A stretch of 64,000 bases of DNA from Candidatus Poribacteria bacterium (GTDB lineage: Bacteria; Poribacteria; WGA-4E; WGA-3G): NCBI GenBank assembly GCA_003635315.1, contig PYJD01000007.1, forward strand, positions 13,400-77,399, read 5' to 3'. Position 1 is the stretch's first letter; every line of letters begins with the position of its first letter. Below the pieces are notes generated by a model. It saw nothing but the letters and a program-made list of their open reading frames with translations, ran no database searches and was not told the origin of the DNA. Shown piece by piece: positions 24,466 through 53,600 of the stretch. The translations under genes were made by a program, and so were the position numbers.

Positions 24466-25659
24466 ATGTACAAAAAATTCTTACTTTTCACATCAATTAT
24501 ACAACTTGCAATACTTAGTATGTTAATAACTGGATGTGAAAAAATAGATCAGATGATCACACCAGATACAACTGTACCTACAATGGATAAAACACTAAAA
24601 ATCGGTGTGATTCAACCATCAAATACTTTTACAACCTTTAGCCAAGGTGCTGAAACCGCCCGTGTTCAAATTAACGAAATGGGTGGTGTACTCGGTATGA
24701 AGGTAGAATTTATCAGTAGAGACAATCAACCTGTGGCAACTGCCCCTCCAACGCCAGAAGCCAGTGTCAGTGCAGCGAAAGAACTTATTGATGTTGAGGA
24801 TGTCTTTGCACTTTTAGGTCCGATTTACTCTACGAATGCTGTCGAAGTCGGTCCGATTGCCCAACAGGCAAAACGGTTGATGCTTCCAGGTTCCAGCGGT
24901 TCAAACGTGCCAGTTGTCGGAGATTATGTTTTTCTCATTACAGTACCGAACCCATTTCAAGGGAAAGTTATGGCGAGTTTCGCTATGAACCCTGACGAAC
25001 TCGGAGCTAAGACGGCCGCAACAATTCACGAAGACGGTGATGTATATTCTAACGACCTTGTATTGGCGTTTGAGGATGCTTTTCAAGGAATCGGTGGAAA
25101 GATAGTTCACAGTGGCACGTATTCCGCAGGTGATACCACCTTCACAAACCTACTCACAGAAATTCACAATACTAATCCTGACGTTATTTTTTGCCCAGCT
25201 TTTCAGCCAGAAGTACCGTTGCTGATAAATGAAGCGCGAAGTATCGGCATCACTGTGTCATTCCTCGGTGGCAGCGCATGGGATGATCGTGAACGTTTCC
25301 TCAGCATCTTAGACGATAACAGTGTTTTGGACGACTGTTATTATCCAACGAATTTCTCGGTAGCGACACCGGATCCAAATGTTCAAGAATTTGTACAAGG
25401 ATACACCGCACTTTTCGGAGGTCCACCAGATGGTATTGCAGCATCGGGTTATGATGCGATGCGACTCTTAGCTCGGGCAATAGATACAGCAGGTTCGCTG
25501 GACAATGAAGCCGTTCGTGATGCATTTGCAGAAACCAGCGGTTACAAAGGGGCAACAACTATTTCGCATTACGATGGAAACCGTCATCCCGTCAAGAGTC
25601 TCGCAATTCAGGTTATCCAGGATGGACAAGTGAAGCACTACAAAGTCGTGGAACCGTAA
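24466..25659 (+). CDS. ABC transporter substrate-binding lipoprotein (LivJ/LivK, branched-chain amino acid type)
   Basis: Lipobox LITGC; LKIGVI...INEMGGVLG...LLGPIYSTNA...GYDAMRLLARAI. Confidence 0.9.
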   Translation: MYKKFLLFTSIIQLAILSMLITGCEKIDQMITPDTTVPTMDKTLKIGVIQPSNTFTTFSQGAETARVQINEMGGVLGMKVEFISRDNQPVATAPPTPEASVSAAKELIDVEDVFALLGPIYSTNAVEVGPIAQQAKRLMLPGSSGSNVPVVGDYVFLITVPNPFQGKVMASFAMNPDELGAKTAATIHEDGDVYSNDLVLAFEDAFQGIGGKIVHSGTYSAGDTTFTNLLTEIHNTNPDVIFCPAFQPEVPLLINEARSIGITVSFLGGSAWDDRERFLSILDDNSVLDDCYYPTNFSVATPDPNVQEFVQGYTALFGGPPDGIAASGYDAMRLLARAIDTAGSLDNEAVRDAFAETSGYKGATTISHYDGNRHPVKSLAIQVIQDGQVKHYKVVEP

Positions 25660-25766
25660 TATGTAGGAAGGATAAATCACCTTACCACATACAAAGCTGT
25701 TCATTAATCTGGATAGATCTCATAATTTAAACACCATATTAACAAAGAAATATCGGAGACACACTT

Positions 25767-26801
25767 ATGACAGAACAACTCATTCAAATCGGTGTCGTTG
25801 GATGCGGATGGGCAGGTCGACAAGCAATCGCTTCTGCCAATGCCACTTCTCGTCTAAACGTCAACGCAATAGCAGAACGTGATCCTACCCGTAGAGAAGA
25901 AGCGGGAGATGAACACTCTGTTCCAAATCGATATGCGGATTATAAAGAACTTCTAAATGATTCAGCCGTCGATGCTGTTTACCTTGCCACCTCTCCAGAT
26001 GTTCGGCTACAACAGGTCTTGGATACACTTGCTGCTGGAAAGCATGTGTTAGTTCAAAAACCCCATGCACTCCGAGCTCATGAGATATTGGAGATGGAGG
26101 AAGCATCACAAAAAGCTCAAAAAACACTCCAATTCTGCTATTTTATGCGACATTTTCCAATTAACCGTCAAATACGAAATACAATAGCAAATGGTGCAAT
26201 TGGAGAACCGTACCATGCACGCGTTTTTGGGAAATTCAATTTCTTACCACCACTTGATACAAATAATCGGTGGTTGCATGTATATGGACAGAAGGGTGGT
26301 TCATTAGGACAACACTTTTCACACGAACTTAACCTTACATGGTGGTGGATGGGATGTCCAAAACCCGAGTGGGCATTCGGTGTGAAGCATGTCCTCTATC
26401 CAAAGTATGACGGTCCGGAAGGTGCAGCCGAAGATTATTTTTCAGGTATCCTCGGATGTGAAGGCGGTAAAACAATCCAGATTGATTGTACTCGGATGGG
26501 ACATACAGAATCCGGAGATATAGTAGAATTCTACGGTACAACTGGGGCAATCACCAAAGGTGGTATCTCTCGTTTCAAGGATGGGGAATATGTGCGAGAG
26601 ACATGTGAAGAGCCAAATGAAATTGATCATGGAGAGATACCTGAAGATCTACCTGTTTTTTATTATGAACTCAACCATTTTGCAATGGCGATTGCAGGTG
26701 AGGTTGAACCGGATGTTTCCGCAGAAAACGCTTATACCTATATGAAAATATTGGATGCGTTCTATGATAGCGCTAAGAGTGGTGAGAAGGTTTATATTTG
26801 A
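25767..26801 (+). CDS. Gfo/Idh/MocA family oxidoreductase
   Basis: Rossmann IGVVGCGWAG; AGKHVLVQKP motif. Confidence 0.9.
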   Translation: MTEQLIQIGVVGCGWAGRQAIASANATSRLNVNAIAERDPTRREEAGDEHSVPNRYADYKELLNDSAVDAVYLATSPDVRLQQVLDTLAAGKHVLVQKPHALRAHEILEMEEASQKAQKTLQFCYFMRHFPINRQIRNTIANGAIGEPYHARVFGKFNFLPPLDTNNRWLHVYGQKGGSLGQHFSHELNLTWWWMGCPKPEWAFGVKHVLYPKYDGPEGAAEDYFSGILGCEGGKTIQIDCTRMGHTESGDIVEFYGTTGAITKGGISRFKDGEYVRETCEEPNEIDHGEIPEDLPVFYYELNHFAMAIAGEVEPDVSAENAYTYMKILDAFYDSAKSGEKVYI

Positions 26802-26909
26802 CAAAAACACCTCTATCTGTTAGTCTATCAACACGAAATTATTGAACAAATTAGCCGTTATTGCTAACTCAATAACAAACTAATACCTTCCTGATTTTGG
26901 AGGACTTAG

Positions 26910-27962
26910 GTGTACAAAAGTGCAATGTTAGGGTGCGGAGGACGCGCCCGAGGACACGCGGAGGCATACCGTTTCGTAAAACGAGGTAAACTTGCTGCAA
27001 TCTGCGATATGCACCAAGAACGCCTAAACAATTTCGGGGATGAATACGCAATTTCTTCGCGTTACACTGACTTGAATGAGATGCTTCAAAAAGAGAAACC
27101 CGATGTCCTCCACATTGTCACAAGCCCCGTTGTGCCGGGTAGCAATGAACGGATCCGTTATCTCTTGATGAAACAGGCATCCAATCACGGTGTGCCAGCG
27201 GCGGTTGTTGAAAAACCAGTCGCTATTGAAGGCGAGGATTGGAAGCAAATTGCTGGGTTAGCAGAAGAGACAAAAACGAAATTTGTCGTCAATACACAAC
27301 TCAATTTCCATCCAAAGAATCTCGAACTGAAACGCGATGTCGCTGACGGGAAAATTGGCGAAATTAAGTTTATTGATGCCAGTGCACGTAGTAGAGCCTC
27401 CGAGCAGGGAGGGCATATACTACAGTTGGCGTCCTCCTACATAGACAACTCCCATCCAATACGGGTTCTTGGACAAGTCTCTGGAACAGAAGATGTAAAT
27501 TCTGCTCCTGGACATCCGGGTCCATTGCATGCAGTCGGACATGTTTTGTATGAGAACGGCGTTCACGTTTCTCTGGCATTTGGATCAGAATTTGGACAAA
27601 TGGTATCTGATGATCCAGGTGTCTACGGACACAAACGTGTTTTTGTTGTCGGAACGAAAGGCTTTGTGCATTGGCGTTTTAACAGTTGGGAACGTTCAAC
27701 ATTGAGTGGCGGGTATGAAAGCGGTCCGATTAACTATGGAGAGCAAGATGTCGTCGCGCAGGCTAACTTCACCGAAGCCATTTTTGATTGGTTAGACGAT
27801 GAGACGAATGTCCATCCGACGCATCTCAAGCAGTCCCTGGTGGAGTCTAACCTTATTTTAGGATTGTATTACAGCGGGTTAACAAATGAGATAGTAGAAC
27901 TACCGTTTGAACCACCCAATGGCTTAATGGACGACCTTGAGAGAAGTTGTAATTTAAATTGA
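26910..27962 (+). CDS. Gfo/Idh/MocA oxidoreductase, tandem paralog 1 of 4
   Basis: LGCGGRARGH...KEKPDVLHIVT...VEKP; GGAGGA RBS before a GTG start. Confidence 0.9.
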   Translation: MYKSAMLGCGGRARGHAEAYRFVKRGKLAAICDMHQERLNNFGDEYAISSRYTDLNEMLQKEKPDVLHIVTSPVVPGSNERIRYLLMKQASNHGVPAAVVEKPVAIEGEDWKQIAGLAEETKTKFVVNTQLNFHPKNLELKRDVADGKIGEIKFIDASARSRASEQGGHILQLASSYIDNSHPIRVLGQVSGTEDVNSAPGHPGPLHAVGHVLYENGVHVSLAFGSEFGQMVSDDPGVYGHKRVFVVGTKGFVHWRFNSWERSTLSGGYESGPINYGEQDVVAQANFTEAIFDWLDDETNVHPTHLKQSLVESNLILGLYYSGLTNEIVELPFEPPNGLMDDLERSCNLN

Positions 27963-27972
27963 AATTTATGTT

Positions 27973-28097
27973 GTAGGTAAGGGTTTCAACCATTACCTAC
28001 TTTACGTTTTGGTGCGCTACTGGCGTGCTACTATAATTAATACCATTTCTGATATATAATGTCTCTCTTGTAGCATAAACTTTCCAGTTTGTGCCAC
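27973..28097. repeat. Two GTAG-initiated REP-like palindromes between paralogs 1 and 2
   Basis: GTAGGTAAGGGTTTCAACCATTACCTAC (27973-28000) and GTAGCATAAACTTTCCAGTTTGTGCCAC (28070-28097). Confidence 0.6.
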
Positions 28098-28172
28098 ATT
28101 CCGCTTCATTTCTAACAATAGGTAATGGGACAAAAATTAATTGAAATGGTATAACATTAGAGGAGACACCTC

Positions 28173-29210
28173 ATGTATAAGAGTGCATTTTTAGGATGTG
28201 GTGGTCGTGCCCGTGCCCATGCGAGTGCTTACAGGTTCGTAAAGGGCGGGAAAATCGGTGCCATCTGTGATATGAACGAAGAATTACTCAATAAGTTCGG
28301 TGATGACTTTGATGTATCTGCCCGATATACTGATTTCGATGAGATGCTTGAAAAGGAGAAACCGGATCTGCTACATATTGTCACTGCTCCGGTATTACGC
28401 GGTACAAATCAACGAATCCGCTATTCACTGATGAAGCAAGCGTCAGATCATAATGTGCCAGCCGCTATTGTGGAAAAACCTATTGCTGTAGAAAGTGAGG
28501 ACTACAAACAGATCGCAGGGTTAGCTGAAGAGACAAGTACAAAGTTTATCGTCAATACACAGCTTAATTTTCATCCCAAAAATCTTGAATTAAAACAGGA
28601 TGTTGCAGATGGTAAAATCGGGGAAATTAAGTTTATTGATGCCAGTGCTCGAAGTACACCTGTTGACCAAGCACCTCATGTCTTGCAGCTGGTATCCTCA
28701 TATATTGACAACTCACGTCCTGTACGGGTATTAGGTCAAATTGCAGGCAAAGAACAATTAGATTCAGCACAACCATCTCCGATGCACGCTGCTGCACAGG
28801 CAATCTATGATAACGGACTTCATGTTTCACTTGCTTTTGGTACAGGCATGGGAACTTTGGCATCTGAGGGTGGAGGAACAGTAACACATAAACGTGTGTT
28901 CGTTGTTGGTACAAAAGGTTTCGTTCATTGGCGTTTTAGCAGTTGGGAACGATCCACACATGATGGTGGTTATGAGGGCGGACCTCTCAATTATGGGGAA
29001 CAGGATATTCAAGCACAAGGCAATCTAACAGAAGCAGCATTTGACTGGCTTGATGATGAAAACAATGAACATCCCACCCATCTAAAACAATCTCTTGCTG
29101 AGTTCAATCTACTATTAGGTATATATTATAGCGGAATTACTAATGAGATTATTGATCTTCCGTTTGAACCACCTGATGGATTAATGGGATCTCTCAAAGA
29201 GGAATTATAA
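28173..29210 (+). CDS. Gfo/Idh/MocA oxidoreductase, tandem paralog 2 of 4
   Basis: Co-linear with paralog 1; AGGAGA RBS. Confidence 0.9.
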   Translation: MYKSAFLGCGGRARAHASAYRFVKGGKIGAICDMNEELLNKFGDDFDVSARYTDFDEMLEKEKPDLLHIVTAPVLRGTNQRIRYSLMKQASDHNVPAAIVEKPIAVESEDYKQIAGLAEETSTKFIVNTQLNFHPKNLELKQDVADGKIGEIKFIDASARSTPVDQAPHVLQLVSSYIDNSRPVRVLGQIAGKEQLDSAQPSPMHAAAQAIYDNGLHVSLAFGTGMGTLASEGGGTVTHKRVFVVGTKGFVHWRFSSWERSTHDGGYEGGPLNYGEQDIQAQGNLTEAAFDWLDDENNEHPTHLKQSLAEFNLLLGIYYSGITNEIIDLPFEPPDGLMGSLKEEL

Positions 29211-29269: not shown

Positions 29270-29335
29270 TGTAGGAGCGATCTCCGATTCGCGACCCATA
29301 ACAGGAATGATCGGGAATCAGAGTTCCCTCCTACA
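29270..29335. repeat. Inverted REP doublet (REPIN-like)
   Basis: TGTAGGAGCGATCTCCGATTCGCGAC on + and TGTAGGAGGGAACTCTGATTCCCGAT on -. The inner stems GCGA/TCGC and GGGA/TCCC differ by a compensatory change. Confidence 0.7.
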
Positions 29336-29423
29336 TAAAAGACCTGATATCTTTTATGAATCAATATATCGACCTTACGTTCATGAGTCCAATTTGAACC
29401 AGGACACCAAAGGAGACATTACT

Positions 29424-30467
29424 GTGTATAAAACAGCTATGTTAGGGTGCGGGGGACGTGCCCGTGCACATGCTGATGCCTATCGTTTCGTCAAAAACGG
29501 TAAACTCTCAGCCATCTGCGATATGAATGAGGATTTACTTAAAAGTTTCGGTGATGACTTTGGTATTTCATCACGATACACTGATCTTGATGAGATGCTT
29601 GAAAAAGAGAAACCGGATGTACTTCACATCGTCACCGCACCCGTATTACGCGGTACAAATCAACGCATCCGTTATTCTCTGATGAAACAAGCCTCAGACC
29701 ACAATGTGCCAGCTGCAATCGTAGAGAAACCTATCGCTGTTGAAAGTGAAGATTGGAAGCAGCTTGCAGGTTTAGCAGAAGAAACACAAACTAAGTTCGT
29801 CGTTAACACACAACTCAACTTTCATCCACAGAATCTCGAATTGAAGAAGGATGTCGCAGATGGAAAAATTGGAGAAATTAAGTTTATTGATGCCAGTGCA
29901 AGAAGTACTCCTGTAGATCAAGCACCGCATGTGTTGCAACTTGTTTCTTCATACATTGATAACTCACGTCCAGTCCGTGTGCTCGGACAGATTTCTGGAG
30001 GTCAAGATCTGAATTCTACGCAACCTTCACCGATGCATGCTGCCGCTCAGGTCATATATGAAAACGGTCTGCATGTATCTCTTGCATTTGGAGCCAGTAT
30101 TGGACAAAAAGTGCCTAAAGAACCAGATATGGGGAACCACACACACAAACGCGTCTTTGTCATAGGAACAAAGGGGTTTGTACACTGGCGATTTAGCAGT
30201 TGGGAACGTTCAACACAAGATGATGGTTACGAGAGTGGTCCACTTGATTATGGTGAGCAAGATGTCATTGCACAAGGGAATCTCACGGAAGCTGTTTTCG
30301 ATTGGCTTGATGATGAGAAGAACGTGCATCCAACACATCTTAAGCAGTCACTCGCAGAATTTAATCTACTCCTTGGCATATATTATAGCGGGGTTACGAA
30401 CGAAATAATTGAACTGCCGTTTGAACCACCGGATGGAATCATTGATATACTTCGTGAGAAATTATAA
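29424..30467 (+). CDS. Gfo/Idh/MocA oxidoreductase, tandem paralog 3 of 4
   Basis: GTG at 29424 after AGGAGA (29411-29416) matches the paralog N-termini (MYKTAMLGCGGRA). The track start 29307 runs through the REP doublet. Confidence 0.9.
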   Translation: MYKTAMLGCGGRARAHADAYRFVKNGKLSAICDMNEDLLKSFGDDFGISSRYTDLDEMLEKEKPDVLHIVTAPVLRGTNQRIRYSLMKQASDHNVPAAIVEKPIAVESEDWKQLAGLAEETQTKFVVNTQLNFHPQNLELKKDVADGKIGEIKFIDASARSTPVDQAPHVLQLVSSYIDNSRPVRVLGQISGGQDLNSTQPSPMHAAAQVIYENGLHVSLAFGASIGQKVPKEPDMGNHTHKRVFVIGTKGFVHWRFSSWERSTQDDGYESGPLDYGEQDVIAQGNLTEAVFDWLDDEKNVHPTHLKQSLAEFNLLLGIYYSGVTNEIIELPFEPPDGIIDILREKL

Positions 30468-30541: not shown

Positions 30542-31579
30542 ATGTATAAAACAGCTATGTTAGGCTGTGGAGGACGTGCTCGCGCACATGCTGATGCCTA
30601 TCGCTTTGTAAAAAACGGTAAACTCTCGGCAGTCTGTGATATGAATCAAGAATTGCTCAATAATTTTGGAGATGATTTTGGAATTGAAGCACGTTATACA
30701 GATTTAGATAAAATGCTACATAAAGAGAAACCTGATGTGCTTCATATTGTTACCGCTCCTGTCTTACGGGGGAGTAACGAACGGATACGCTATCCATTGA
30801 TGAAACAAGCATCCGATGCTGGTGTTCCTGCAGCGATTGTTGAAAAGCCTATTGCTGTTGAAAGTGAAGATTGGAGACAAATTGCAGGATTAGCGGAAGA
30901 GACGAATACAAAGTTTGTGGTCAACACACAGCTGAACTTTCATCCGCAGAATCTCGAATTAAAGAAAGACGTTGCTGAAGGAAGAATTGGTGATATCAAA
31001 TTCATTGATGCCAGCGCAAGAAGTACACCCGTTGACCAAGGACCACATGTGCTCCAGTTGGTATCATCCTACATTGATAATTCACGTCCGGTACGGGTGC
31101 TCGGACAGGTTTCTGGCAGTGCCCAATTGGATTCCGCTCAGCCATCTCCGCAATATGCTGCAGCCAGAGTTCAATATGAGAACGGATTACATGTATCTGT
31201 TGCGTTTGGAACAGCCATTGCCCCATCTGCATCAGATGATCAGACAGTATACTTTCATAAACGCGTTTTCGTGATTGGCACGGATGGATTTGTACATTGG
31301 CGTTTTAGTAGTTGGGAACGTTCTACACGAGAAGGAGGGTACGAAGGAGGTCCACTCAATTATGGTGAACAAGATGTTATCGCACAAGGAAACCTTACCG
31401 AAGCGGTTTTTGATTGGCTTGATGATGAAAATAAAGTACATCCAACACATTTAAAACAGTCACTTGCAGAATTCAACCTCCTATTAGGGATCTATTATAG
31501 TGGTATTACGAATGAGGTAATAGAACTACCATTCGATCCACCAGACGGATTGATGGATATGCTTAGAGAACGTTTGTAA
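30542..31579 (+). CDS. Gfo/Idh/MocA oxidoreductase, tandem paralog 4 of 4
   Basis: Co-linear with paralogs 1-3; AGGAGA RBS. Confidence 0.9.
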   Translation: MYKTAMLGCGGRARAHADAYRFVKNGKLSAVCDMNQELLNNFGDDFGIEARYTDLDKMLHKEKPDVLHIVTAPVLRGSNERIRYPLMKQASDAGVPAAIVEKPIAVESEDWRQIAGLAEETNTKFVVNTQLNFHPQNLELKKDVAEGRIGDIKFIDASARSTPVDQGPHVLQLVSSYIDNSRPVRVLGQVSGSAQLDSAQPSPQYAAARVQYENGLHVSVAFGTAIAPSASDDQTVYFHKRVFVIGTDGFVHWRFSSWERSTREGGYEGGPLNYGEQDVIAQGNLTEAVFDWLDDENKVHPTHLKQSLAEFNLLLGIYYSGITNEVIELPFDPPDGLMDMLRERL

Positions 31580-31701: not shown

Positions 31702-32346
31702 TTAACGTGTGTTTTTCAATGAACCCCATGTAGTTGTTAACTTAGCCTTAGGATCTACTGCTGTCGCTGCACTCTCAACAGCCTCAAGTGCACTAAACAT
31801 AGCGTTGAGATCACCCTTACCAGTATCACCATTCCCTGCAAAGTTGAAATCAAGAGTACCATCAGAGACTTCAATAGCATCATATTTCTTAATATCAATC
31901 TCATGACGACCTGGTGTTACATAGAGCGGTTCCACAACTTCATCTTCAATTATTATATCAAAACCACGATTGTTGGGGGACCAGTGTTCACCGACAAGGT
32001 AGGTTACATCAAAAATGCCATTACCTGTTTTGAACTGATACTTCACAGTCGCTGGAAATGCTGCCCAACTCACAGCGTAGAACAGGTCAGCATCGTAGCC
32101 AGCCTCTTGTGCTTGTGCTTGCGCGTCTGCTGTTAATTCCCTGACTTCTGCTGTACGTGGGGCAGCTTCAATCCATCCACCCCAAGATTGGTCAGTCTGT
32201 TGTGCACCCCGCCACACACGACCTTTCGAATCGGTGTAATCATCAGTCTTACCACCCCAAACTCGAAATTCTTCGGCTGATAATAAACACGGTACTGCAA
32301 AGACAGCTATAAAAAGTATGAGCGTTAATATACTTAATGACTTCAT
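31702..32346 (-). CDS. Secreted malectin-like carbohydrate-binding protein with C-terminal VDPxxKLTTTWGxLK motif
   Basis: Signal peptide; YTDSKGRVW...FDVTYLVGEHW...RGFDIIIE...GTLDFNF...FSALE malectin-like pattern; GGAGG RBS. Confidence 0.7.
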   Translation of the reverse strand: MKSLSILTLILFIAVFAVPCLLSAEEFRVWGGKTDDYTDSKGRVWRGAQQTDQSWGGWIEAAPRTAEVRELTADAQAQAQEAGYDADLFYAVSWAAFPATVKYQFKTGNGIFDVTYLVGEHWSPNNRGFDIIIEDEVVEPLYVTPGRHEIDIKKYDAIEVSDGTLDFNFAGNGDTGKGDLNAMFSALEAVESAATAVDPKAKLTTTWGSLKNTR

Positions 32347-32362
32347 ATATCCTCCGTTAGAT

Positions 32363-33013
32363 TTAGTCTCGACGGTTTTCCTTGAGAGTTCCCCAAGTAG
32401 TTGTTAATTTCTGTTTAGGATCAACTGCTAATTTTGAGGGAACTACTTCGATTCCACTAAACATTGCATTGAGATCACCCTTACCAGTCTTCGCATTTCC
32501 AGCAAATACAAGACTCATCACGGTATCCTTAACCTCAATAGCTTCATATCTTTTAATATCAATCTCATCCTTACCAGGTGTGACGTAGAGTGCTTCAACA
32601 ATCTCATCTTCAATCATAATATCAAAACCACGATTGTTTGGGGACCAGTGTTCACCGACCAGATAGGTTACATCAAAAACACCTTTACCCGTGTTAAGAT
32701 CAACCTTGACTACATCGGGAAATGCTGCCCAACTCACAGCATAGAAGAGATCTTCGTCATAACCCTCTTCCTTAGCCAATTTTTTGGCATCAGCCGTCAG
32801 AGTTCTCACTTCTGCTGTTCGTGGCAACTTTTCAATCCAACCACCCCATTCCTGTTTTTCTTTTTGTCCACCATACCAAACGTTACCGTCAGAATCGGTA
32901 AAATCATTGGCTTTTCCACCCCACACACGGATCTCTTTTTTGGCTGGTATCCCATCAAGAACAAATCCTGCTGCGAGTACAAGACACAAAATTATAAAGA
33001 AATAGCGTTTCAT
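32363..33013 (-). CDS. Secreted malectin-like protein, paralog of 31702..32346
   Basis: Long shared blocks (DLFYAVSWAAFP, VTYLVGEHWSPNNRGFDI, TGKGDLNAMFS) and the same C-terminal motif. ATG at 33013 after GGAGG (track start 33055). Confidence 0.7.
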   Translation of the reverse strand: MKRYFFIILCLVLAAGFVLDGIPAKKEIRVWGGKANDFTDSDGNVWYGGQKEKQEWGGWIEKLPRTAEVRTLTADAKKLAKEEGYDEDLFYAVSWAAFPDVVKVDLNTGKGVFDVTYLVGEHWSPNNRGFDIMIEDEIVEALYVTPGKDEIDIKRYEAIEVKDTVMSLVFAGNAKTGKGDLNAMFSGIEVVPSKLAVDPKQKLTTTWGTLKENRRD

Positions 33014-33159
33014 TATTTCCTCCATGACAGCGATTATAAAATAATCTGTATTCAACCAAGGGAATCTCCCTTTGATTTTGCGATAATTATACGAGATTTT
33101 AAAATAAAATTCAATTTTTTAATCTGTTTACCGATAATCTTAAAAGCGACAACATTCCT

Positions 33160-34776
33160 TCAGTCACGTTTTTCCATCACTACAAGTTTCTGATTTACTG
33201 GGATATTATGTATTGTCTGCACAACACCACTGGACCAATGAATAATAATCTTATCAACTATGTTGTGGTTTCCAAGACCAAATTCCACCTCTCGACTATT
33301 TTGTGACAGATAACTACTCCCAGCCGTAACTTCACGAATTTGCTCTGTATCCCCAGCTATTACTTTGATACGCGTTCCAATTCCATCACGATTACTCTCA
33401 ACACCAATTGTATGGATATGGATCCAGTTGTGTTTATTTCCACTATCATTACGGAGGAGTCTCGGTTTTTCGCCGCTATTCACAACAAACAGATCTACAT
33501 CACCATCCGCATCATAATCTGCAGCAGCGACACCTCTACCAACACCGGGAGACTTGAATTCTCTAAGACCAACATGTTCAGAAATATCTGTAAAAGTGCC
33601 ATCTCCATTATTGCGTAAAAGTACATCGGGTTGTCCATGGTCTTCCCATGTTGCTGGGTCAATATGTCCAGCAGAGAAAAATAGATCTAAGTCTGTGTCA
33701 TTATCCATATCAAAGAACACGGCACCCCAACATGTTTTTCCCAGTCCAGATTCAAAAACACCACTCCCAGCAGAAACATCTGTGAAAGTGCCATCTCCAT
33801 TATTTTTATACAGTATATTGTTCTCATCAAGCCAATTTGTCACAAATAGGTCTAACACACCATCGTTGTCATAATCACCCCATGCAATCCCCATGCCTCC
33901 GCGGATATCCCCGGTATGGCTTCTTGCATCGGGTTGATTGGTATTCATAAATGTCATCTCACCATCATTGCGGTAGAGGATATTCTGATCACTATCGTTT
34001 GCAAGGTAAATATCTAAATCACCATCATCGTCGTAATCTGCTGCAGCAACACCAAGTGTCAAATGAAAACCACCGTTTATCTTCGAAGCATTAGTTACAT
34101 CAATAAATCCTCCATCCCCTTTGTTGAGATAGAGCACATTGGTTTGTCCGAAGAAATCGTATGGAAAAAATACTTCATCTCCTTGAGGAACTTTGGTATA
34201 CTCAATATAGTTACCAATGTAAAGTTCAAGAAACCCATCATTGTTATAATCCCCCCAAGAGACACCTGATCCGAAACCTGTGTGACCGATACCTCCTGCT
34301 CCTGATGTGAACCGTTTAAATGTCCCATCCCCCTTGTTTAGATAGAAGACATTCGCTTTATAGTTTGTTACATAAAGATCCGCATCCCCATCATTGTCAT
34401 AGTCAGCAAAAGCACATCCCATTCCCCAACCGGTATCCCCAACACCTGCTACATCTGTTACATCGGTGAATGTTCCATCTCCGTTGTTCCGATAAAGGAC
34501 ATTCTTTGGTAGAATTGTCTCTGGTTCAGGTCTTACAGCAGTGCTATTTACAATATAGAGATCCAATGTGTCATCGTTATTATAGTCACACCACGCTGCA
34601 CCGGATCCAACAAGCGCAGGAACTACACGCAAATCAATACCACCGGAATGTTTAAAATGAATACCTGCCTTTTGAGTAACATCGACAAACTTTATTTCAC
34701 CTGCAGCTTTATTGAGAAAGTAGACAATACTCAGCATTAAAAGTGGTATTACAATAGAAATATGTGTATTCTTCAT
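33160..34776 (-). CDS. CRTAC1 family protein (FG-GAP/VCBS repeats plus ASPIC/UnbV domain), secreted
   Basis: Repeated (W/F)xDYDNDGxxD(L/I)(Y/F)V and LYRNNGDGTFTDV; C-terminal NRDGIGTRIKV...GSSYLSQN...FGLG. Confidence 0.92.
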   Translation of the reverse strand: MKNTHISIVIPLLMLSIVYFLNKAAGEIKFVDVTQKAGIHFKHSGGIDLRVVPALVGSGAAWCDYNNDDTLDLYIVNSTAVRPEPETILPKNVLYRNNGDGTFTDVTDVAGVGDTGWGMGCAFADYDNDGDADLYVTNYKANVFYLNKGDGTFKRFTSGAGGIGHTGFGSGVSWGDYNNDGFLELYIGNYIEYTKVPQGDEVFFPYDFFGQTNVLYLNKGDGGFIDVTNASKINGGFHLTLGVAAADYDDDGDLDIYLANDSDQNILYRNDGEMTFMNTNQPDARSHTGDIRGGMGIAWGDYDNDGVLDLFVTNWLDENNILYKNNGDGTFTDVSAGSGVFESGLGKTCWGAVFFDMDNDTDLDLFFSAGHIDPATWEDHGQPDVLLRNNGDGTFTDISEHVGLREFKSPGVGRGVAAADYDADGDVDLFVVNSGEKPRLLRNDSGNKHNWIHIHTIGVESNRDGIGTRIKVIAGDTEQIREVTAGSSYLSQNSREVEFGLGNHNIVDKIIIHWSSGVVQTIHNIPVNQKLVVMEKRD

Positions 34777-34935: not shown

Positions 34936-35652
34936 ATGATTAAAGCTATATTCTTTGATCTTGATGGAACACTTTGTGACTCAGATACAGCATGGGATTT
35001 AGCTGTTAGGAATACATTTCAACTTTTTCACAAGAAAGTGGCAAATGTATCAGAAGATCTTCTAATAAAGGTCTGGGATACTGTTCATGCGACTTTATTT
35101 CAACGACTCGACGCAGGCATATGTTCTATGGCAGAGGTGAGAGATTCACGTTACCACTGTTTATTCGATGAACTAAAATTACCTTCAAGTAAACTGGCAG
35201 ATGAACTGAATGACTCTCTCAGTCGACGTTATATTTCCAAGCTAAAACTCTTCAATGATGCTACCGTCCTTGAGCAACTGTCCACTTTTCATGTAGGTAT
35301 CATCACAAACGGTGCACACGATGAACATACTGATAGTCAACTTACTAAGGTCAAAAATCTTGGATTAAATGAGTATATTCAGTCGTTAACTATTTCAGAT
35401 GAAATCGGTTTTAGGAAACCACATTCTGAAATCTTCAAAGTTGCTTGTGAACGGGCAGGTGTATTACTGAATGAAGCAGTTATGGTTGGTGATTCAATTG
35501 AGAATGATATTGTAGGCGCAAACCGAGTGAATATGACCAGTCTCCATATCAATCGAAGTTCAAACGTCTTCATACCAAATAATCTGGATGGTCAACCAGA
35601 CTATTTAATCTCAAATTTATACGACATTTTACACTATTTGACTATAAGATAA
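34936..35652 (+). CDS. HAD-superfamily hydrolase (YjjG-like)
   Basis: Motif I FDLDGTL, ITNG, KP, and motif IV VGDSIENDIVGA. Overlaps the convergent gene by 19 nt. Confidence 0.9.
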   Translation: MIKAIFFDLDGTLCDSDTAWDLAVRNTFQLFHKKVANVSEDLLIKVWDTVHATLFQRLDAGICSMAEVRDSRYHCLFDELKLPSSKLADELNDSLSRRYISKLKLFNDATVLEQLSTFHVGIITNGAHDEHTDSQLTKVKNLGLNEYIQSLTISDEIGFRKPHSEIFKVACERAGVLLNEAVMVGDSIENDIVGANRVNMTSLHINRSSNVFIPNNLDGQPDYLISNLYDILHYLTIR

Positions 35653-36461
35653 TTGCTAATTATCTCAGTGGCGATTTCAGCTTTCGGATTATCTTGATAT
35701 TGTGTATGATAGACAATGGCTATTCTACCACGGTCCCCATCTCTAACAATGATCGGATCTGCTACTGTTGCTTCAGAATTTCCAGTATCCGTTGCAAAAA
35801 TCTTCTCTGCATACCATTCATCTTCGAATTGATCTAAGGGAAAGGGTCTGTCAGATTCGAATCTTTTTAAACTTGGACAAAGTGTCTCGGCTGCTGTTGT
35901 GACGATCATGACTGTGTCGTGTGTGTAGACATCAATCTCAATATCTTCAATGTCCATGAGGTTTTGTAAAGCCCCACGTTCATTTGCCTTACCTTCTGTA
36001 GTATTATAACCTAAATAATCAGCCTGATTCCAAATGGTATCACCATCCTTTGATTCAATCCATTTTTCTGCTATAGACCCATCGGGTTGTGCGTTTCCCG
36101 CTGGATATATCGATGCAGGTAAAACACCATTAAGGATGCAGACATTTACCGAATTGTTTGCAGTTGTTTGTACCATCCAGTCTCTCAAAGAATATTCATT
36201 CCCTGTAATTCCTACTTGTATACCTTTAGCTTCCAATAATTTTTTCGTCAGTTCTGCTTCAGTTCTGGCATTCTCAGGTGTGATCCACCATGTTTTACCG
36301 ATAAAAATTAATACATCCTCAGGTGATTCATATACTACCATCTCTGACGGTTCTAATTCTGTTACTACCGTATCTTGTATTTGTTGTGTCTTATTACAAT
36401 TGACAGAGGAAAGGATACAACTTATGAGAACAATTACAATCAGACTTCTATTTCTTAGCAT
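35634..36461 (-). CDS. Hypothetical lipoprotein-like exported protein, paralog A
   Basis: N-terminal hydrophobic stretch ending SVNC; shares IYxAGNxQxDGSIAEKWIESxDGDTIxNQADYLGY with the neighbouring gene. Confidence 0.7.
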   Translation of the reverse strand: MLRNRSLIVIVLISCILSSVNCNKTQQIQDTVVTELEPSEMVVYESPEDVLIFIGKTWWITPENARTEAELTKKLLEAKGIQVGITGNEYSLRDWMVQTTANNSVNVCILNGVLPASIYPAGNAQPDGSIAEKWIESKDGDTIWNQADYLGYNTTEGKANERGALQNLMDIEDIEIDVYTHDTVMIVTTAAETLCPSLKRFESDRPFPLDQFEDEWYAEKIFATDTGNSEATVADPIIVRDGDRGRIAIVYHTQYQDNPKAEIATEIISNYLIVK

Positions 36462-36515: not shown

Positions 36516-37328
36516 CTATTTAGCCAAGAGATAATTGATGATTATCTCCGCTGCAACAACACCTTTCGGATTATGTTTATGATGTGTTTGGTGAACCATC
36601 GCAAGTCTACCTCGATTCCCATCTCTGAGAATGATTGGGTCAGCAGATTCTGACTCTGTTTCTCCAGTATTGCTTGCAAATATCTTTTCAGGGTACCACT
36701 CACCATCAAGTTGTTCTAAAGGAAAGGGTCTGTCAGATCTAAACGTCAATAGACTTGGTGTTAATGTTTTACCGTGTTTTGTGATATACATAGGCATTTC
36801 TTCAAAATACTCTACATTAATGTCCAGTTTTGGAAGATCCATAAGGTTTTGTAGTGGTGCTTTGTTGTTTGCCGTTCCATCTGAACTGTAATACCCTAAA
36901 TAATCCGCTTGATTCAAGATCGTATCACCATCCGTTGATTCAATCCATTTTTCGGCTATTGATCCATCGGACTGGGTATTACCTGCGGCATATATTGTAG
37001 TAGGTATGACACCATAAAGGATACAGACATTTGCCTCTCCATTTGCTGTTGTTTCTGACATCCAGCTCTTAAGATTCTCTTCACTTAGCGTAATTCCTAC
37101 TCGGATTTCATTGGTTTGCAAAAGCTTCATTGTCTGTTCAGCTTCTTCTGTTGCATGATCGTATGTGATCCAAGAAGTACTCCCTGTATAAATCAAAACA
37201 TCCGGTTGTTCTGACTTTATTTCATTTGACACAACAGATGTTTGTTCTTTATGTACTTTAGTACAACCTACAAGTGATGCTAAGCAACCAAATATAGGAA
37301 TCATCACTATCCATAGATACTTCCGCAT
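36516..37328 (-). CDS. Hypothetical lipoprotein, paralog B
   Basis: Lipobox LVGC; co-linear with 35634..36461. Confidence 0.75.
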   Translation of the reverse strand: MRKYLWIVMIPIFGCLASLVGCTKVHKEQTSVVSNEIKSEQPDVLIYTGSTSWITYDHATEEAEQTMKLLQTNEIRVGITLSEENLKSWMSETTANGEANVCILYGVIPTTIYAAGNTQSDGSIAEKWIESTDGDTILNQADYLGYYSSDGTANNKAPLQNLMDLPKLDINVEYFEEMPMYITKHGKTLTPSLLTFRSDRPFPLEQLDGEWYPEKIFASNTGETESESADPIILRDGNRGRLAMVHQTHHKHNPKGVVAAEIIINYLLAK

Positions 37329-48594: not shown

Positions 48595-50568
48595 TTAGAA
48601 TTTCCCAAACACGCGTACAAATATCTCCATATAATTCTGGTCGTTAACATCACCGATTGCACGTTGGTCAATGTACCGTGCTCCTATATGGAGAAACATC
48701 TGCTTACGATAAGCAACGAAACTCTTTTCCATTTCTGCTAACAGTGCTTGACGAACAAAGTCATTATCATCTTTCAGTAAATCATTAAAAAGGAGTAATT
48801 GTCCACCCCCTGTAAGTTTAATCGTCTTTGTAAACTGATATACTATTTTAAGAATAAGAGCAGGTGTCATATCTCGGACATGTGCTTGCTCAATATGCCG
48901 TAATCTTAGTTCACGTGTGACATCTCTACCGTCAATCTCTCCTCTTAATTTTAGGTAATCCAGTCTATCCTCTGCCATACGGAAACCATTCCGAATGGTA
49001 TACTTAAACATAGGACTGATTTCCAGTGATTTTGATGGACGTAGTCGGTATAACGTTTTAAAGATTCCGACTTCGTAGTGCTCATTATCATTATCAAAAT
49101 CGATATCATATTGTATTTTTGCGCGGGCAGTGGTAACCATTCGTCTGATTCCCAGATACTCCCATGTAAGTTTCGCAGTGTTGATGAGATCATTCTGCAT
49201 CAGCAATGGATCAATTCGTCGTTTTTCGACTTCCGCACCACCATCAACGTAAAAGAACTGTAAATCATTGTCTTCCAACATATCTTGAATGTGTGGTTGT
49301 CTTTTAAACAGATCTTCATCCTGTCTTCTTAAGAAACCAGCATAATACCAAGTTTCATCCGGTATTTCATCTTTCACCAGTTTGAGTTCATTCTCAAGTA
49401 TAAAAGTAGAAGCTCGTGCAAGCTGCCGTTTGTATATCATAGTACCATACGCTTTACTTGATCTTGGAATATTACGATATCTATGGTTTTCCTCTATTTG
49501 CATACCAAGGTCTAAATCGATGACGCTCTGTTTATGGTATATCTTTCGATTCATGAAGAATCGTATGCCTTGTAGTCCAACATCAAACTCGTAATTTGGG
49601 TCTTTATCATTTTCCTCTTCATCTCGTATCCCGTTGTTGTTTTGATCACTTTCGTCAAGAAAATCCTCATCGACATCAAACAGTAGGATATCGTCCTCAT
49701 AATCAAAAGTTCCGTTATTGTTTTTATCGAGGTCACCAGGAATAATTAGGGAAGGTGGATCAGGAAATGTGTTATCTGAATACCTGTCCTGATCATCATT
49801 ATCCCCTACTGACCGAGAAGCATCAAAACGCGGACCGACCCGATATGCCTCAGCTTGTAGAAGTGTATCGCCGACAGTTCGGAAAGCTTTGAAAACAGTT
49901 GTCGTCGCGTCAAACCGTGAATTCAGATCTTTATATAGAGCGTTTTTAGGTGTGACGGCTATCTCTGCTTTTAATCCATAGTTGGCGAAGTTCGTTTCCA
50001 TGTCTATTGCCCAAACAGGTGTTTCCCGAAAATACCAAGAAAGTCCAAGTTGTGATTTGCCAAATTTAGTAACCTCCCGCAACCCCATTCCTGAACCCTC
50101 TATTCGTCTTCCTTGCCCACTTAACCGGTTCAGTGTTCCCGGTACCATCAGGATAGTCCAATCTGTTCGGTTGGAACGTACCTCCCATCGCACTCCGCTC
50201 ATATCTATTTGATCAAAGGTGAATTTCGTGAATGTTGTGGGAACTTCACCGAGACTCAATATATTATTTACTGTACCTGCCGTTTCTTCAATAACCAATA
50301 CACTATGAAACCCACGTCTGAAAAGACGGTCAAAATCAAAATTATCTTGTCTGACACGTTCATCCTCTGTGTCGGCAAGAAAGTTACGTCTATTGGTAAA
50401 ATCATATTCTACACGTCCCGAAAGGAATAGTTTACCGAATAGACTGTATACATCCTCAGCGTTAACATGGAAGAAGGGAGAACAGAGGAAGAAAAAAGTG
50501 AAAGGTAGTAGAATGGATTTAATTACAGTACGATGCCTAATAGAACTTTTTGAGAAGGTATTATGCAT
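48595..50568 (-). CDS. Predicted outer-membrane beta-barrel protein with acidic Dx(D/N)xNG Ca-binding-like insert
   Basis: Signal peptide; amphipathic strand pattern with a terminal Phe (FVRVFGKF); insert GDLDKNNNGTFDYEDD...DQNNNGIRDEEE. Confidence 0.6.
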   Translation of the reverse strand: MHNTFSKSSIRHRTVIKSILLPFTFFFLCSPFFHVNAEDVYSLFGKLFLSGRVEYDFTNRRNFLADTEDERVRQDNFDFDRLFRRGFHSVLVIEETAGTVNNILSLGEVPTTFTKFTFDQIDMSGVRWEVRSNRTDWTILMVPGTLNRLSGQGRRIEGSGMGLREVTKFGKSQLGLSWYFRETPVWAIDMETNFANYGLKAEIAVTPKNALYKDLNSRFDATTTVFKAFRTVGDTLLQAEAYRVGPRFDASRSVGDNDDQDRYSDNTFPDPPSLIIPGDLDKNNNGTFDYEDDILLFDVDEDFLDESDQNNNGIRDEEENDKDPNYEFDVGLQGIRFFMNRKIYHKQSVIDLDLGMQIEENHRYRNIPRSSKAYGTMIYKRQLARASTFILENELKLVKDEIPDETWYYAGFLRRQDEDLFKRQPHIQDMLEDNDLQFFYVDGGAEVEKRRIDPLLMQNDLINTAKLTWEYLGIRRMVTTARAKIQYDIDFDNDNEHYEVGIFKTLYRLRPSKSLEISPMFKYTIRNGFRMAEDRLDYLKLRGEIDGRDVTRELRLRHIEQAHVRDMTPALILKIVYQFTKTIKLTGGGQLLLFNDLLKDDNDFVRQALLAEMEKSFVAYRKQMFLHIGARYIDQRAIGDVNDQNYMEIFVRVFGKF

Positions 50569-50612: not shown

Positions 50613-53600
50613 CTATCTTACGATATCTTCAGGACCGTAGGCTTCGGTAAATGTTGTCCAGATACCTGACCGCTTATCATAACGGCTTAAACCCCGATAT
50701 GTACCGAACCAGACGTACGTATTGTCTATAGACATTGATAGAATACCGTTGTGGGATAAACCTTCATCTCTTGTGTAAGTTTTCCAAGTATCTTCTAATT
50801 GATCGAATCGACTGACACCAGCGTTGTATGTGCCTATCCAGACATCATTACCATCTACACCGATGGTTGTTATTTTATTACTTATGAGTCCATTTTCTGT
50901 GTTATAGATACGCCAATCTTCTGTGTCTTCATTATAGAGTGCTACACCTTGGTCACTCCCGAACCAAACACGAGTTCGATCAATAGCAATACAACTAATT
51001 TCGTTGCTAACGAGTCCATCCTCTTTAGTGATAGTTTTCCAGATATCGCGACCAATGTCGTATTTACTCACGCCTCGACGTGTTCCGACCCAAACGTTCT
51101 TTTTGCTTGCTGTTATTGTCCATATTTCATCCGTAACAAGTGATTCGGCAAACTCCTTAGATACCGCTGAGGGTTGAATTTCACTGCCGGAGGTATACGC
51201 GATCCAAGCATTCAGGTCATCCGCGGTACGAGGGTATTTGCCAATACCTGAATTTGTACCTACCCATATATTATTTCCATCTGTACTGACAGATGTTACA
51301 TTATTCGCGGGTAATCCGTGTTCGGTTTTATATTGATCCCATCGGAGTGCGATTTTATCAAACCTGTTTGCACCATCTCTTGTACCTACCCACACATATT
51401 GTTCATCAACGACAATTGAACTCACAGCGTTATCTGAGAGCATCCCGCGTGATTTCGGTCTATGGCGATGCCAATGTCCGTCGTGTGTAGCAATTTCCTC
51501 AGAACCGCCAGTCTGTCTATAGTTCTTCCATGTACCCAATCCTTTATCATAACGGGATACACCACTGTCCGTTCCAATCCATACGAATCGTTCGTCTGCA
51601 TCCACAGTCCGTACAGTCCGTCCTGATAGCGTTGGTAAAGGAATGAAAGGTGTCCAAGATTCCTTGTGTTTATCATACCGGGATAGACCGCGTATTGTAC
51701 CTACCCATACATAATCTTTATCAACTGCCAGACCATATTCTCCTACGTGGTTATGTAGTAATCCTTCAATATCTTTGAATGCTGACCATGTCCCCGAAGC
51801 GAAATGAAATCGTCTGAGACCGTTATTTGGAACAGCCAACCAGAGATAGTCTTCATCTGCTGCAAGTTCAAGGGTTCCACGTTCAGATTTGATTGTCGTC
51901 CATTCTTGATTGAGTTTATCATATCGGGTTACTGCATTATCCCATGGTCTGTATTGAATCCATACATCGTTCTTTGTAGAAATAATCCGTTTTATAGTCT
52001 TATGTGCGAGAACATCATTTGTGGAAAATGTGTCCCATTTTTTGGTCTTTTTATTGTATCTGGATAGTGGACGATTACTATGTCTATCCCATTCGGATCG
52101 AGCCACCCAAACAAAATCTTCGTCGATTGTAATCCATTCAGCACCCCTGCCAGCTAAACCGTCCTTTGGTCTATAACCTTTCCATTCTTCTGTATCTTCA
52201 TTATACCGTATCAAAGCATCTCCGGTACCGAACCAAATTTCAGATCCGTCAACCGCAATTCCTCTGAGTCTTTCTCTTTCATCTCTCCGATCTGGTTGCC
52301 TCACAATCTTCCAGGTACCAGTTTCTTTATCATACCGATTCAACTCCTGTCCAGTCATTGCAATTATCCACACCGCTTTATCGCTAACATCAATTTTGTG
52401 CAGATCGTCTGAAGCTAATCCATCCTTCATAGTAAAATGTTGCCATACATCTTTAGCTTTATCGTATCGTAGTACACCGTAGTCTGATGTGAACCAGACT
52501 GCATCATCATCTACATAAGTCCAACGGAGTACAGTCATCGTCTTTTTCAATGTAGACTGAAAAATATCCAATCGTGTGAACCGTTGCCAGGTTTTTGATG
52601 GACGATGGAAACGTAAAATACCTCCATTGCGAGAAGATCGCCAGTTAGAAAACCAAATATAATCACCGTCGAATTTGATCTGGGAGGTTTTCTTCTCAAG
52701 TAAAGGTTCACGTACTGGTCGAGACTGATGTAAAACTTGTTCACCATTTTGGAGTTGATGTTCAATCAGACCGGTATTGGTGGCTATCCATAGTCTATCT
52801 TTATCGCAAATGATATCACGTACATTGTAAGTTTTTTCGTTCGGTATCCATTCCTCTGTTGCTATTGAATAACTACCAATTCCTTGGGGTGTACCAATCC
52901 AAAGGACACCATTTTGATAATCGAGGGCGGTTATATTCAGAGGAGCATGCTTCCCGTCAGTACTATTTTTTAACGGTATGGGTTTCCATTGCTGTGATGT
53001 ATTCTCAAATCTTGCTAACCCAGTTTGAGTGCCTGCCCAAATTGTATTTTCTGCAGATACAAGTAAGTTTACATAGGGTTTTTCAAGTCCATCTGTGAGA
53101 CGAGACATCTGCTTATCGGTAATTGAATATCGCCATATACCTTCCACACCAGTAAACCATACACTTTCATCATGAATAAAAACGGATAATATCAAGGGAT
53201 TCTTAGGGGTATCTGGGAGGGTAAGTTTTGTCCACTGTTTTGTATCCACGTCAAATACTGCAGGTCCAACATTTGTACCGAGCCAAATTTTATCTGCACT
53301 CTGAGATGTATCAAAGGACTTGTCTTGTATAGCGACAGCAGTCACAAAAGCTTCTCCTTCAGATGGTCTATAAAATGTCCACTTTTCACCGATATAGTCA
53401 CACGAACCGAGTCCTCTTGCAGTTCCAATCCAAATCTGTCCTTTACTGGATAGGACATTGGAGATCTCATATAATTCATTCTGATCAGTTTTGGGTGTCT
53501 GTGCTTTAACATCAACGGACATAATGTAAGGAGTGGGGAGACCGTCTTCCTTAGAGATTACTTCCCAAGTTTTTGTTGAGGGTGAAAATATCGAGAGTCC

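Follow-up and report, generated by a model that had tools for sequence, protein, structure and literature searches.

Why do two neighbouring malectin-like proteins of a Candidatus Poribacteria bacterium end in the same short peptide, set beyond their folded domain, and what could recognise it there? This question is raised by the window, i.e., the whole 64,000-nucleotide stretch of DNA that was analysed (C7:13400-77399), which belongs to a 4.33-Mb genome in 50 contigs. The initial annotation, which was based on this stretch alone, had described both proteins as secreted and their tails as a candidate sorting or anchoring signal. Based on a survey of the whole genome, a comparison with other genomes and structural models, we conclude, with a probability of roughly 0.85-0.9, that the tail is a sorting, docking or anchoring tag that is read in trans. 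The features of the two genes are as follows.

31702-32346, minus strand: exported malectin/CBM57-like protein 1, 214 aa, with a signal peptide, a beta-sandwich at about residues 25-191, a linker and the TTWG tail.
32275-32346, minus strand: signal peptide of protein 1, approximately residues 1-24 (...CLLSA/EE), from a hydrophobicity heuristic (H=3.42) and an AlphaFold2 helix at residues 2-21, the cleavage site being inferred without a dedicated predictor.
31705-31761, minus strand, stop codon at 31702-31704: tail of protein 1, AVDPKAKLTTTWGSLKNTR, its last 19 codons; 30.2 bits with the hidden Markov model (HMM) of the tail.
32363-33013, minus strand: exported malectin/CBM57-like protein 2, 216 aa from the ATG at 33013, with a signal peptide and the TTWG tail; an alternative TTG start at 33055 would give 230 aa.
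32366-32428, minus strand, stop codon at 32363-32365: tail of protein 2, AVDPKQKLTTTWGTLKENRRD, its last 21 codons; 30.9 bits with the tail HMM.

Both open reading frames (ORFs) encode paralogues that are 64% identical and that begin with a hydrophobic signal-peptide-like N-terminus (MKSLSILTLILFIAVFAVPCLLSA in protein 1 and MKRYFFIILCLVLAAGFVLDG in protein 2). Their tails share the pattern V-D-P-K-x-K-L-T-T-T-W-G-x-L-K, which is followed by three to five residues. In the AlphaFold2 model of protein 1, which was built on 24 homologues and has a mean predicted local distance difference test (pLDDT) of 87, residues ~25-191 have a pLDDT of >90, while residues 192-214 are at 44-64; the tail is unpacked and is separated from the folded domain by a linker of ~5-8 residues, as the initial annotation had supposed. 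A Foldseek search with this model against the PDB confirms a predicted malectin-like beta-sandwich fold. The top matches were the CBM57 of Bacteroides beta-glucuronidases (6d8g/5uj6), the plant ANX/FER ectodomains (5y92/6fih/6a5b) and human malectin (9ikp), with E values of 1e-7 to 4e-7 and TMq values of 0.54-0.65. Protein 1 was below the gathering score of the Pfam Malectin model PF11721 (14 versus 23 bits; E 0.05), protein 2 had no match to it, and the NCBIfam scan of the window proteins at E<=1 returned nothing relevant, with no CTERM model and no C-terminal domain (CTD). The domain has the same predicted fold as CBM57, the plant CrRLK1L malectin-like domains and human malectin, but it differs from them in being a stand-alone exported protein of 215 aa with a tail and in its sub-threshold Pfam score. 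Among the 517 homologues of protein 1, the best 120 were 71-94% identical to it, and those that were named by source were all labelled Poribacteria. The small homologues at 31-54% identity all retain the tail, with K202, W207, G208 and K211 being invariant even among them; the apparently non-poribacterial homologues are without it.

The tail is by no means limited to this pair. In the six-frame ORFs of the genome, the pattern TTWG..K occurred 44 times, and all 44 copies were at most six residues from a stop codon, which greatly exceeds what chance would give. The tail HMM raised the number of carriers to 115, including a W-A variant, when a carrier was defined as an ORF of at least 100 aa that ends no more than 12 residues after the motif; this number is a lower bound because most of the small "tail-less" paralogues bear degenerate tails below the cut-off. 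Every one of the 115 carriers ends 0-8 residues past the invariant Lys, and only one credible internal copy was found. A crude hydrophobicity heuristic assigned a signal-peptide-like N-terminus to 112 of the 115 carriers compared with 1079 of the 2529 background ORFs (43%; Fisher p=4e-36). The tails themselves are net basic and have no hydrophobic stretch, which agrees with their earlier description as basic and non-transmembrane. A possible lipobox was found in only three of the 115 carriers. The window also holds tandem paralogues of ~270 aa on the minus strand (35634-36461 and 36516-37328) that have lipoprotein-type signal peptides (LISC and LVGC) but lack the tail; a tail-bearing family elsewhere in the genome (family 9; o17516/o17001) shares 33-35% identity with them. 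From this anecdotal case, a lipid anchor and the tail may be alternatives.

When the tails and signal peptides had been stripped, BLAST sorted the 115 carriers into 32 clusters, of which the largest were LamG proteins (54) and PD40 propellers (10), with one to four members in each of the others. Using one representative per cluster, Pfam identified Laminin_G_3, PD40, 3keto-disac_hyd (DUF1080), CBM9_1, F5_F8_type_C, NPCBM and DUF4960 as well as He_PIG with LTD (in a protein of 1414 aa), PA14, CBM_4_9, Beta_helix and Ank adjoining an HExxH motif. Many representatives had no Pfam match, and the carriers span more than 12 Pfam families. The initial annotation had asked for an HMM of the tail, a carrier count and a test for signal-peptide enrichment, and it would have abandoned its proposal had the motif been confined to the malectin family or been equally common in cytoplasmic proteins or at internal positions; the carriers belong instead to unrelated families, nearly all of them with signal-peptide-like N-termini. 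The tag is found on about 3% of the predicted proteins in the phylum of this genome, which is uncultured and is dominant among sponge symbionts.

Conservation was examined along the tail, with the Trp as position 0. All 115 carriers have W(0) and K(+4), while K(-5) is present in 109, V(-10) in 108, G(+1) in 90 (with Ala in another 21), T(-2) in 79, P(-8) in 77 and T(-1) in 71. The consensus x-L-x-V-[ED]-P-x-[GD]-K-L-x-T-T-W-G-x-[LI]-K is followed by 1-5 mostly basic or polar residues, and the full range of the stub after K(+4) is 0-8 residues, which are rich in R, K and S, with a mode of three (59 of 115 in this genome and 60 of 132 phylum-wide). The synonymous codons of the tail match the genome-wide usage. 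Mean pairwise identity fell from 0.61 at codon positions 1 and 2 to 0.39 at third positions and to 0.29 over the 40 nt past the stop codon; such a divergence of the third positions and of the downstream DNA shows that selection acts on the peptide and not on the DNA, which rules out a DNA repeat or terminator artefact. The Pfam assignments and the BLAST clustering likewise rule out the end of one expanded family. AlphaFold2 commits to no structure for the tail in two models, where its pLDDT is 44-64 beside the malectin-like domain at >90 and below 50 beside a CTD at 91-96; a role of the tail as a piece of the carrier or CTD fold is unsupported by either. Its sequence pattern is nevertheless hairpin-like: P-x-G/D-K would form the turn of a beta-hairpin, one face of which would be hydrophobic. 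The tail, a portable short linear motif, is separate from the fold of its carrier.

Across the phylum, all 61 sampled Poribacteria genomes (14 genera, eight families) were positive with the tail profile, with 14 to at least 150 matches each. The lowest number belongs to one outlier, genome G001 (same order, 3.8 Mb, 95% complete), which has 14 tails compared with 55 to at least 150 in the other sampled genomes. The profile had no matches in two Ignavibacteriaceae genomes and none in one Bacteroidetes genome, and a single marginal match in Synechococcus proved to be a spurious ORF of 63 aa. A scan of one genome per GTDB species with the strict DNA pattern KLTTTWGxhK gave at least 119 loci; among the 80 loci listed, 73 were labelled Poribacteria and five were unlabelled metagenome-assembled genomes (MAGs), two of which were tested and have ~145 tails each. 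At the 119 loci of other genomes, 131 of the 132 strict matches are followed by a stop codon after 1-8 residues. A sponge MAG labelled "Pseudomonadota" had four tails in a 1.9-Mb bin, at least one of them on a short contig, and is probably contaminated. Judged from these genomes, the tag is confined to Poribacteria, and the few matches elsewhere reflect chance or probable binning contamination. The initial annotation had attributed such tails to many unrelated exported proteins of Poribacteria and of related lineages; the first part was borne out by the 32 clusters and the 61 genomes, while no evidence was obtained for the second.

Viral contigs gave no match with the strict pattern and one match with a longer pattern (IMGVR_UViG_3300020473_001887; L245:3524-4372), in which a LamG-like protein of 282 aa has the tail SVDPKNKVTTTWGEIK followed by 31 basic residues. 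Its neighbours are Fe-S cluster assembly, ferredoxin and glutaredoxin-like genes, and the contig, which is classed as viral, may be a phage or a misclassified piece of a cellular genome. A longer continuation was also observed on contig C30 of genome G002 (L215, L229), where three adjacent paralogues have the tail and then a conserved extension of ~30-35 residues (…YPxGHKGTRFEKG…), which may be another C-terminal module.

Besides the extreme C-terminus, the tail has only one other context, which is immediately ahead of a CTD of the type IX secretion system (T9SS) type. In this genome, 36 ORFs end in a T9SS type-A-like CTD (LLxNYPNPFNPETWIPY...); a tail-like motif is located directly upstream of it in three and is missing from the other 33. 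One of the three lies at the edge of the window.

62372-64000, plus strand, running off the window: WD40 propeller protein of 797 aa (C7:75741-78131), with WD40 Pfam matches.

In the part of this protein that lies beyond the window, a degenerate tail, SVEPKGKQFVTLGQVK, in which the Trp is replaced by Leu, is positioned six residues ahead of the CTD. A scan of the GTDB species genomes for the tail followed by NYPNPFNP returned 82 loci, all but three of which were labelled Poribacteria or were unlabelled. Of the three, only the Ignavibacteriaceae locus (L130) was read residue by residue; the VEPxGK half is absent from it, and it looks like a chance match. The spacing is strict: in 80 of the 81 tail+CTD junctions, the final Lys of the tail is exactly six residues ahead of N-Y-P-N-P-F. 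In the AlphaFold2 model of a tail+CTD protein, the CTD has a pLDDT of 91-96 and the ordered part begins at ~K+3, and tail-only proteins end at about this point (mode K+3). In Porphyromonas, PorU acts at the usual CTD cleavage boundary; by analogy, and if the model is correct, a cut here would give tail+CTD proteins, once freed of the CTD, the kind of C-terminus that tail-only proteins have (Lys +1 to +5). The large proteins P0123 and P0125, which share the malectin-like domain of the window pair, end in a CTD without a tail. Because the tail stands upstream of the CTD in cis and because most CTD proteins have no tail, it is a module in its own right and no degenerate form of the CTD. The analogy with the T9SS CTD and PEP-CTERM that had been drawn in the initial annotation consequently holds for a portable tag on exported proteins, but not for a simple CTD analogue, given that both elements occur in cis at the six-residue spacing; the tail would work together with the CTD and probably becomes the C-terminus once the latter is cleaved off.

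Previous work on single-cell genomes of Poribacteria reported TIGR04183 CTDs, whereas structural genes of the T9SS were not found (Kamke et al. 2014, PMC3909097). Beyond these cargo domains, PorU-, PorV- and SprA-like genes have now been found in Poribacteria. Two PorU-like C25 proteins of 2146 and 1739 aa (C43:80007-86444 and C42:62322-67538) matched NF033707 below the NCBIfam cut-off (319+107 and 257+90 bits; positions 3-1093) and Pfam Peptidase_C25 with 269 and 297 bits, in addition to Propeptide_C25 and a FlgD_ig CTD. At ~1700-2150 aa, they are roughly twice as long as the classical PorU, and in one of them, the peptidase and C-terminal parts are separated by an unassigned insertion of ~700 residues. 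PorU-like C25 proteins of a similar size (~2000 aa) were present in two to three copies in all seven diverse Poribacteria that were tested, and yet most of the CTD cargo is tail-less. Two ORFs exceeded the Pfam cut-off for PorV-family barrels (PF19572), while the match of a SprA-like ORF of 2167 aa (C31:95477-101977) was weak (67.8 bits compared with a cut-off of 200). This ORF is ~6 kb from an array (C31:107743-130206) of paralogous proteins of ~850 aa, each with a T9SS-type CTD. Another possible outer-membrane route is offered by two tandem secretins (C28:18583-24739; 1009 and 1010 aa; PF00263, 124 and 122 bits); two genes of the PD40/LamG type, both with a degenerate tail, lie a few kb away.

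The tails of two distant lineages depart from the consensus of this genome. In genome G008, the tails follow S-V-[DE]-P-x-G-K...W-G-x-L-K with two trailing residues, and the TT pair is mostly gone, whereas those of G002 often have Ser at -8, I or M at +3 and mostly one trailing residue; in both genomes, these features are found across unrelated carriers. A concerted, lineage-wide drift of the tail on unrelated carriers suggests a single trans-acting partner in each lineage, i.e., one shared reader, as far as can be judged from the tail sequences. A candidate partner is encoded in the window beside the two tail genes.

33160-34776, minus strand: exported FG-GAP/UnbV_ASPIC propeller (CRTAC1-like), Pfam FG-GAP_3 2.9e-53 and UnbV_ASPIC 2e-21.

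This gene (hereafter ASPIC) is directly upstream of both window tail genes and is co-oriented with them, and the order ASPIC, malectin-2, malectin-1 is kept in another Poribacteria genome (L214). Within the genome, five of the 11 ASPIC-like genes are within 2.5 kb of a tail gene (null mean 0.9, p<0.0005), and the adjacency remained significant against similar-sized secreted-like genes (null mean 1.13, p=0.0017); none of the 33 CTD genes lies within this distance of a tail gene. An ASPIC-like ORF was also found in 13 of the 119 independent tail loci compared with ~2.9 expected, although six of the 13 are orthologues of the present locus. The link between ASPIC and tail genes is real, and ASPIC is a candidate partner of the tail.

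The initial annotation had pointed instead to two barrels at 48.6 and 58.9 kb as components of the machinery. The first (48595-50568, minus strand) is a barrel candidate of 657 aa that ends in ...VFGKF and has no Pfam match; next to it is encoded a propeller of 1407 aa (50613-54836, minus strand) with a possible lipobox, which matched Reg_prop with 124 bits and PorZ_N_b_propeller with 53 bits (cut-off 27), and the pairing recalls PorQ/PorZ. The second (58913-62254, plus strand) is a barrel candidate of 1113 aa that ends in ...AMVGF and precedes the WD40 protein described above. The 657-aa barrel is not supported as a tail component, having clear orthologues in only three of the six other tail-bearing genomes that were tested, and neither window barrel showed a specific link to the tail. 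ASPIC is the better-supported linked gene. On the other side of the malectin-like genes and convergent with them, the plus strand encodes two tandem, closely related paralogues of the Gfo/Idh/MocA oxidoreductase type (29307-30467 and 30542-31579), with ORFs of a similar size upstream at 24466-29210.

How such a tag might work can be proposed with a confidence just short of even odds: the tail would be a docking or anchor peptide that is retained and is bound by a putative shared reader in the envelope. The carriers, which are mostly small lectin-like proteins, would be exported by Sec and would keep the tail in their mature form. The tail would become ordered only upon binding, probably as a beta-hairpin or an added strand, to one shared, lineage-specific envelope receptor, which could be a protein or a glycan, and many different binding modules would thereby be kept at the envelope. 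The CTD of the few tail+CTD proteins would serve export only, taking them through the outer membrane via a divergent T9SS-like system; its removal would expose the tail as a new C-terminus that would coincide with the ends encoded in the genome for tail-only proteins (Lys +1 to +5). A fuller version of this proposal is more tentative and, in our judgement, rather less probable. It envisages a phylum-specific envelope display system in which a label of ~18 residues is read, non-covalently or by transpeptidation, by a dedicated receptor that displays more than 100 lectin-like modules per cell, in which CTD removal yields the same C-terminus on larger cargo, and in which FG-GAP/ASPIC propellers, including a conserved ASPIC-tail-CTD protein, belong to the reading or attachment complex. 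If this is true, the tail would be the first C-terminal signal for sorting or anchoring in bacteria that has neither a transmembrane helix nor a folded domain.

Several observations weigh against the proposed mechanism of a retained docking or anchor peptide. The samples that revealed the lineage drift were small (18-24 tails) and were picked with the profile of this genome, even though such a selection should understate the differences between lineages. Genome G001 keeps two PorU-like and six ASPIC genes and yet has only 14 tails, and the number of tails is therefore not tied to either group of candidates. No recognised signal for crossing the outer membrane was found on the tail-only proteins, for which a periplasmic or a surface site are both possible, and a tag that acts on both sides of the outer membrane requires explanation. 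The equivalence of K+3 and the CTD boundary rests on an AlphaFold2 model and on PorU cleavage in Porphyromonas, not in Poribacteria. Finally, searches with GldL and GldM for the PorL/PorM motor found no match, but they also missed the Bacteroidetes control and thus carry no information on the motor.

Among the other explanations, the one that survives best, although we consider it unlikely, is a cleavable export or sorting signal: a periplasmic translocon or shuttle would recognise the tail, which would then be removed as are T9SS CTDs or PEP-CTERM/LPXTG signals. It could be a minimal, non-domain signal for a divergent T9SS-like system or could use another route such as the tandem secretins. 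Its strictly C-terminal position on Sec-exported proteins and the ~115 cargoes per genome are typical of dedicated sorting systems, and PorU-like peptidases, PorV-like barrels, a weak SprA-like protein and two secretins are all present. Moreover, small proteins have the tail and large multidomain proteins have the CTD, as if there were two classes of signal. In the tail+CTD proteins, however, an internal tail would duplicate the role of the CTD, and yet its register is kept in 80 of 81 junctions; the 33 of 36 CTD proteins without a tail show that it is not needed for the handling of CTDs; and the tail resembles neither the CTD nor its last strands. Strong conservation at 8-10 positions, even in homologues that are 31% identical, is seen more typically in binding motifs than in leaders that are discarded.

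A covalent attachment, in which one of the two near-invariant Lys residues or the new C-terminus would be cross-linked by a transpeptidase to peptidoglycan, lipopolysaccharide (LPS) or a protein, is improbable. It has parallels in the C-terminal Lys of Braun's lipoprotein, which is used by L,D-transpeptidases, and in the PorU-mediated attachment to A-LPS. The occurrence of K(+4) in 115 and of K(-5) in 109 of the 115 carriers, with a short, length-constrained stub after the former, is in line with this mechanism, as are the PorU-like C25 transpeptidase homologues, of which each tested Poribacteria genome has two to three, and the placement of the tail in tail+CTD proteins exactly where a PorU-type enzyme would act. 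The Lys could equally serve a non-covalent recognition, though, and the invariant Trp and the hairpin-like pattern suggest binding; in addition, most CTD cargoes have no tail, and G001 combines PorU-like genes with few tails.

We give a similarly low standing to the possibility that the multi-copy FG-GAP/UnbV_ASPIC propellers themselves read the tail on their propeller face, as integrin propellers bind short peptides, with one conserved, tail+CTD-bearing member going to the surface. The position of the gene directly upstream of the window pair, the conserved trio and the excess of ASPIC-like genes near tail genes, compared with the absence of CTD genes there, all speak for this possibility, and the largest tail+CTD family (42 of 81) is ASPIC-like itself. 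Against it, the copy number follows the number of tails poorly (one ASPIC copy and 96 tails in G002, six and 14 in G001), ASPIC proteins are present in tail-free outgroups, nearly half of the 13 loci are orthologues and not independent, and ~100 tail genes are not beside any ASPIC gene. The adjacency could also reflect a shared substrate or function and not binding. That the tail is no signal at all but an inherited family end, a DNA repeat or terminator by-product or an intramolecular structural element is very improbable: about half of the carriers (54) do form one LamG family and many are beta-sandwiches of a similar size, but the tail also occurs on propeller, beta-helix, ankyrin+HExxH and LTD proteins, lacks conservation at third codon positions and downstream, is unpacked in both AlphaFold2 models and retains its consensus even where the identity of the cores has dropped to 31%.

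A tag that is read in trans has consequences for the biology of the phylum. Most of the carriers are small lectin-like modules of the kind that is thought to mediate contact with the host matrix in sponge symbionts, and a shared tag implies a shared piece of envelope machinery, for which it provides a sequence handle by which the whole cargo can be listed in any Poribacteria genome. In this way, the approximately 115 "hypothetical proteins" of each genome can be given a group and a name. The tail could also be used as a peptide bait for its receptor without the need for a culture.

The comparison with known systems begins with the databases, in which the tail is absent: none of the models in Pfam (2025) or NCBIfam (June 2026) matched the tail when ten carrier C-termini were searched at E<=10, and no CTD was found in them. 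In the literature searched on Poribacteria, type IX secretion, C-terminal signals and TTWG, there was no description of the tail, which supports the earlier statement that its machinery is unassigned. The nearest parallel is the T9SS type A CTD (Por_Secre_tail, TIGR04183/PF18962; FlgD_ig-like), which is also a C-terminal, non-membrane tag on many unrelated Sec-exported families and on dozens to hundreds of cargoes per genome; the present host has PorU/PorV/SprA-like genes and ~36 CTD proteins, and its tail is physically juxtaposed to such CTDs. The CTD, however, is a folded Ig-like sandwich of 70-100 residues, while the tail has ~18-21 residues and is unstructured in AlphaFold2. The two have no sequence similarity, the tail is upstream when both are in the same protein, and most of its carriers are CTD-free. 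The LPXTG/sortase, PEP-CTERM/exosortase, GlyGly-CTERM/rhombosortase and PGF-CTERM/archaeosortase systems similarly place a short, lineage-restricted C-terminal signature with a basic end on unrelated secreted proteins, and the tail marks a paralogous cargo set as Haft-type signals do. These tripartite signals have a transmembrane helix ahead of their basic end, whereas the tail lacks one and continues for only 0-8 polar or basic residues past its motif; it matches no NCBIfam CTERM model, and no partner of the sortase, exosortase or rhombosortase type is implied.

Two other systems share single aspects of the tail. Like the dockerins of cellulosomes, which bind cohesins, it is a small C-terminal appendage that would plug varied carbohydrate-active or carbohydrate-binding modules into a common receptor, but a dockerin is a Ca2+-binding domain of ~60-70 residues with duplicated F-hands and a known cohesin partner, while the tail is a linear motif; no tail had a Pfam match to Dockerin PF00404, for which it is too short. 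Classical dockerins may also be in use by Poribacteria: in the related genome with the conserved gene order, a protein of 311 aa with a Dockerin_1 (PF00404) match (L214:9388-10323) is encoded beside a sulfatase gene ~3 kb from the malectin pair. Braun's lipoprotein (Lpp) resembles the tail carriers in having, close to or at its C-terminus, a conserved Lys that could tether an envelope protein, but Lpp ends with this Lys and is lipidated, while in the tail 1-5 residues come after the Lys and the carriers are not lipoproteins. The tail shows the pattern by which Haft-type signals are recognised, with the same C-terminal motif on many non-homologous proteins with signal peptides in a restricted lineage. 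The tag belongs with the C-terminal sorting and anchoring tags of exported proteins, and its architecture, with neither a membrane helix nor a folded domain, is unusual among them, which extends the catalogue of such bacterial signals to a further type. It could prove to be categorically new if a dedicated reader is found.

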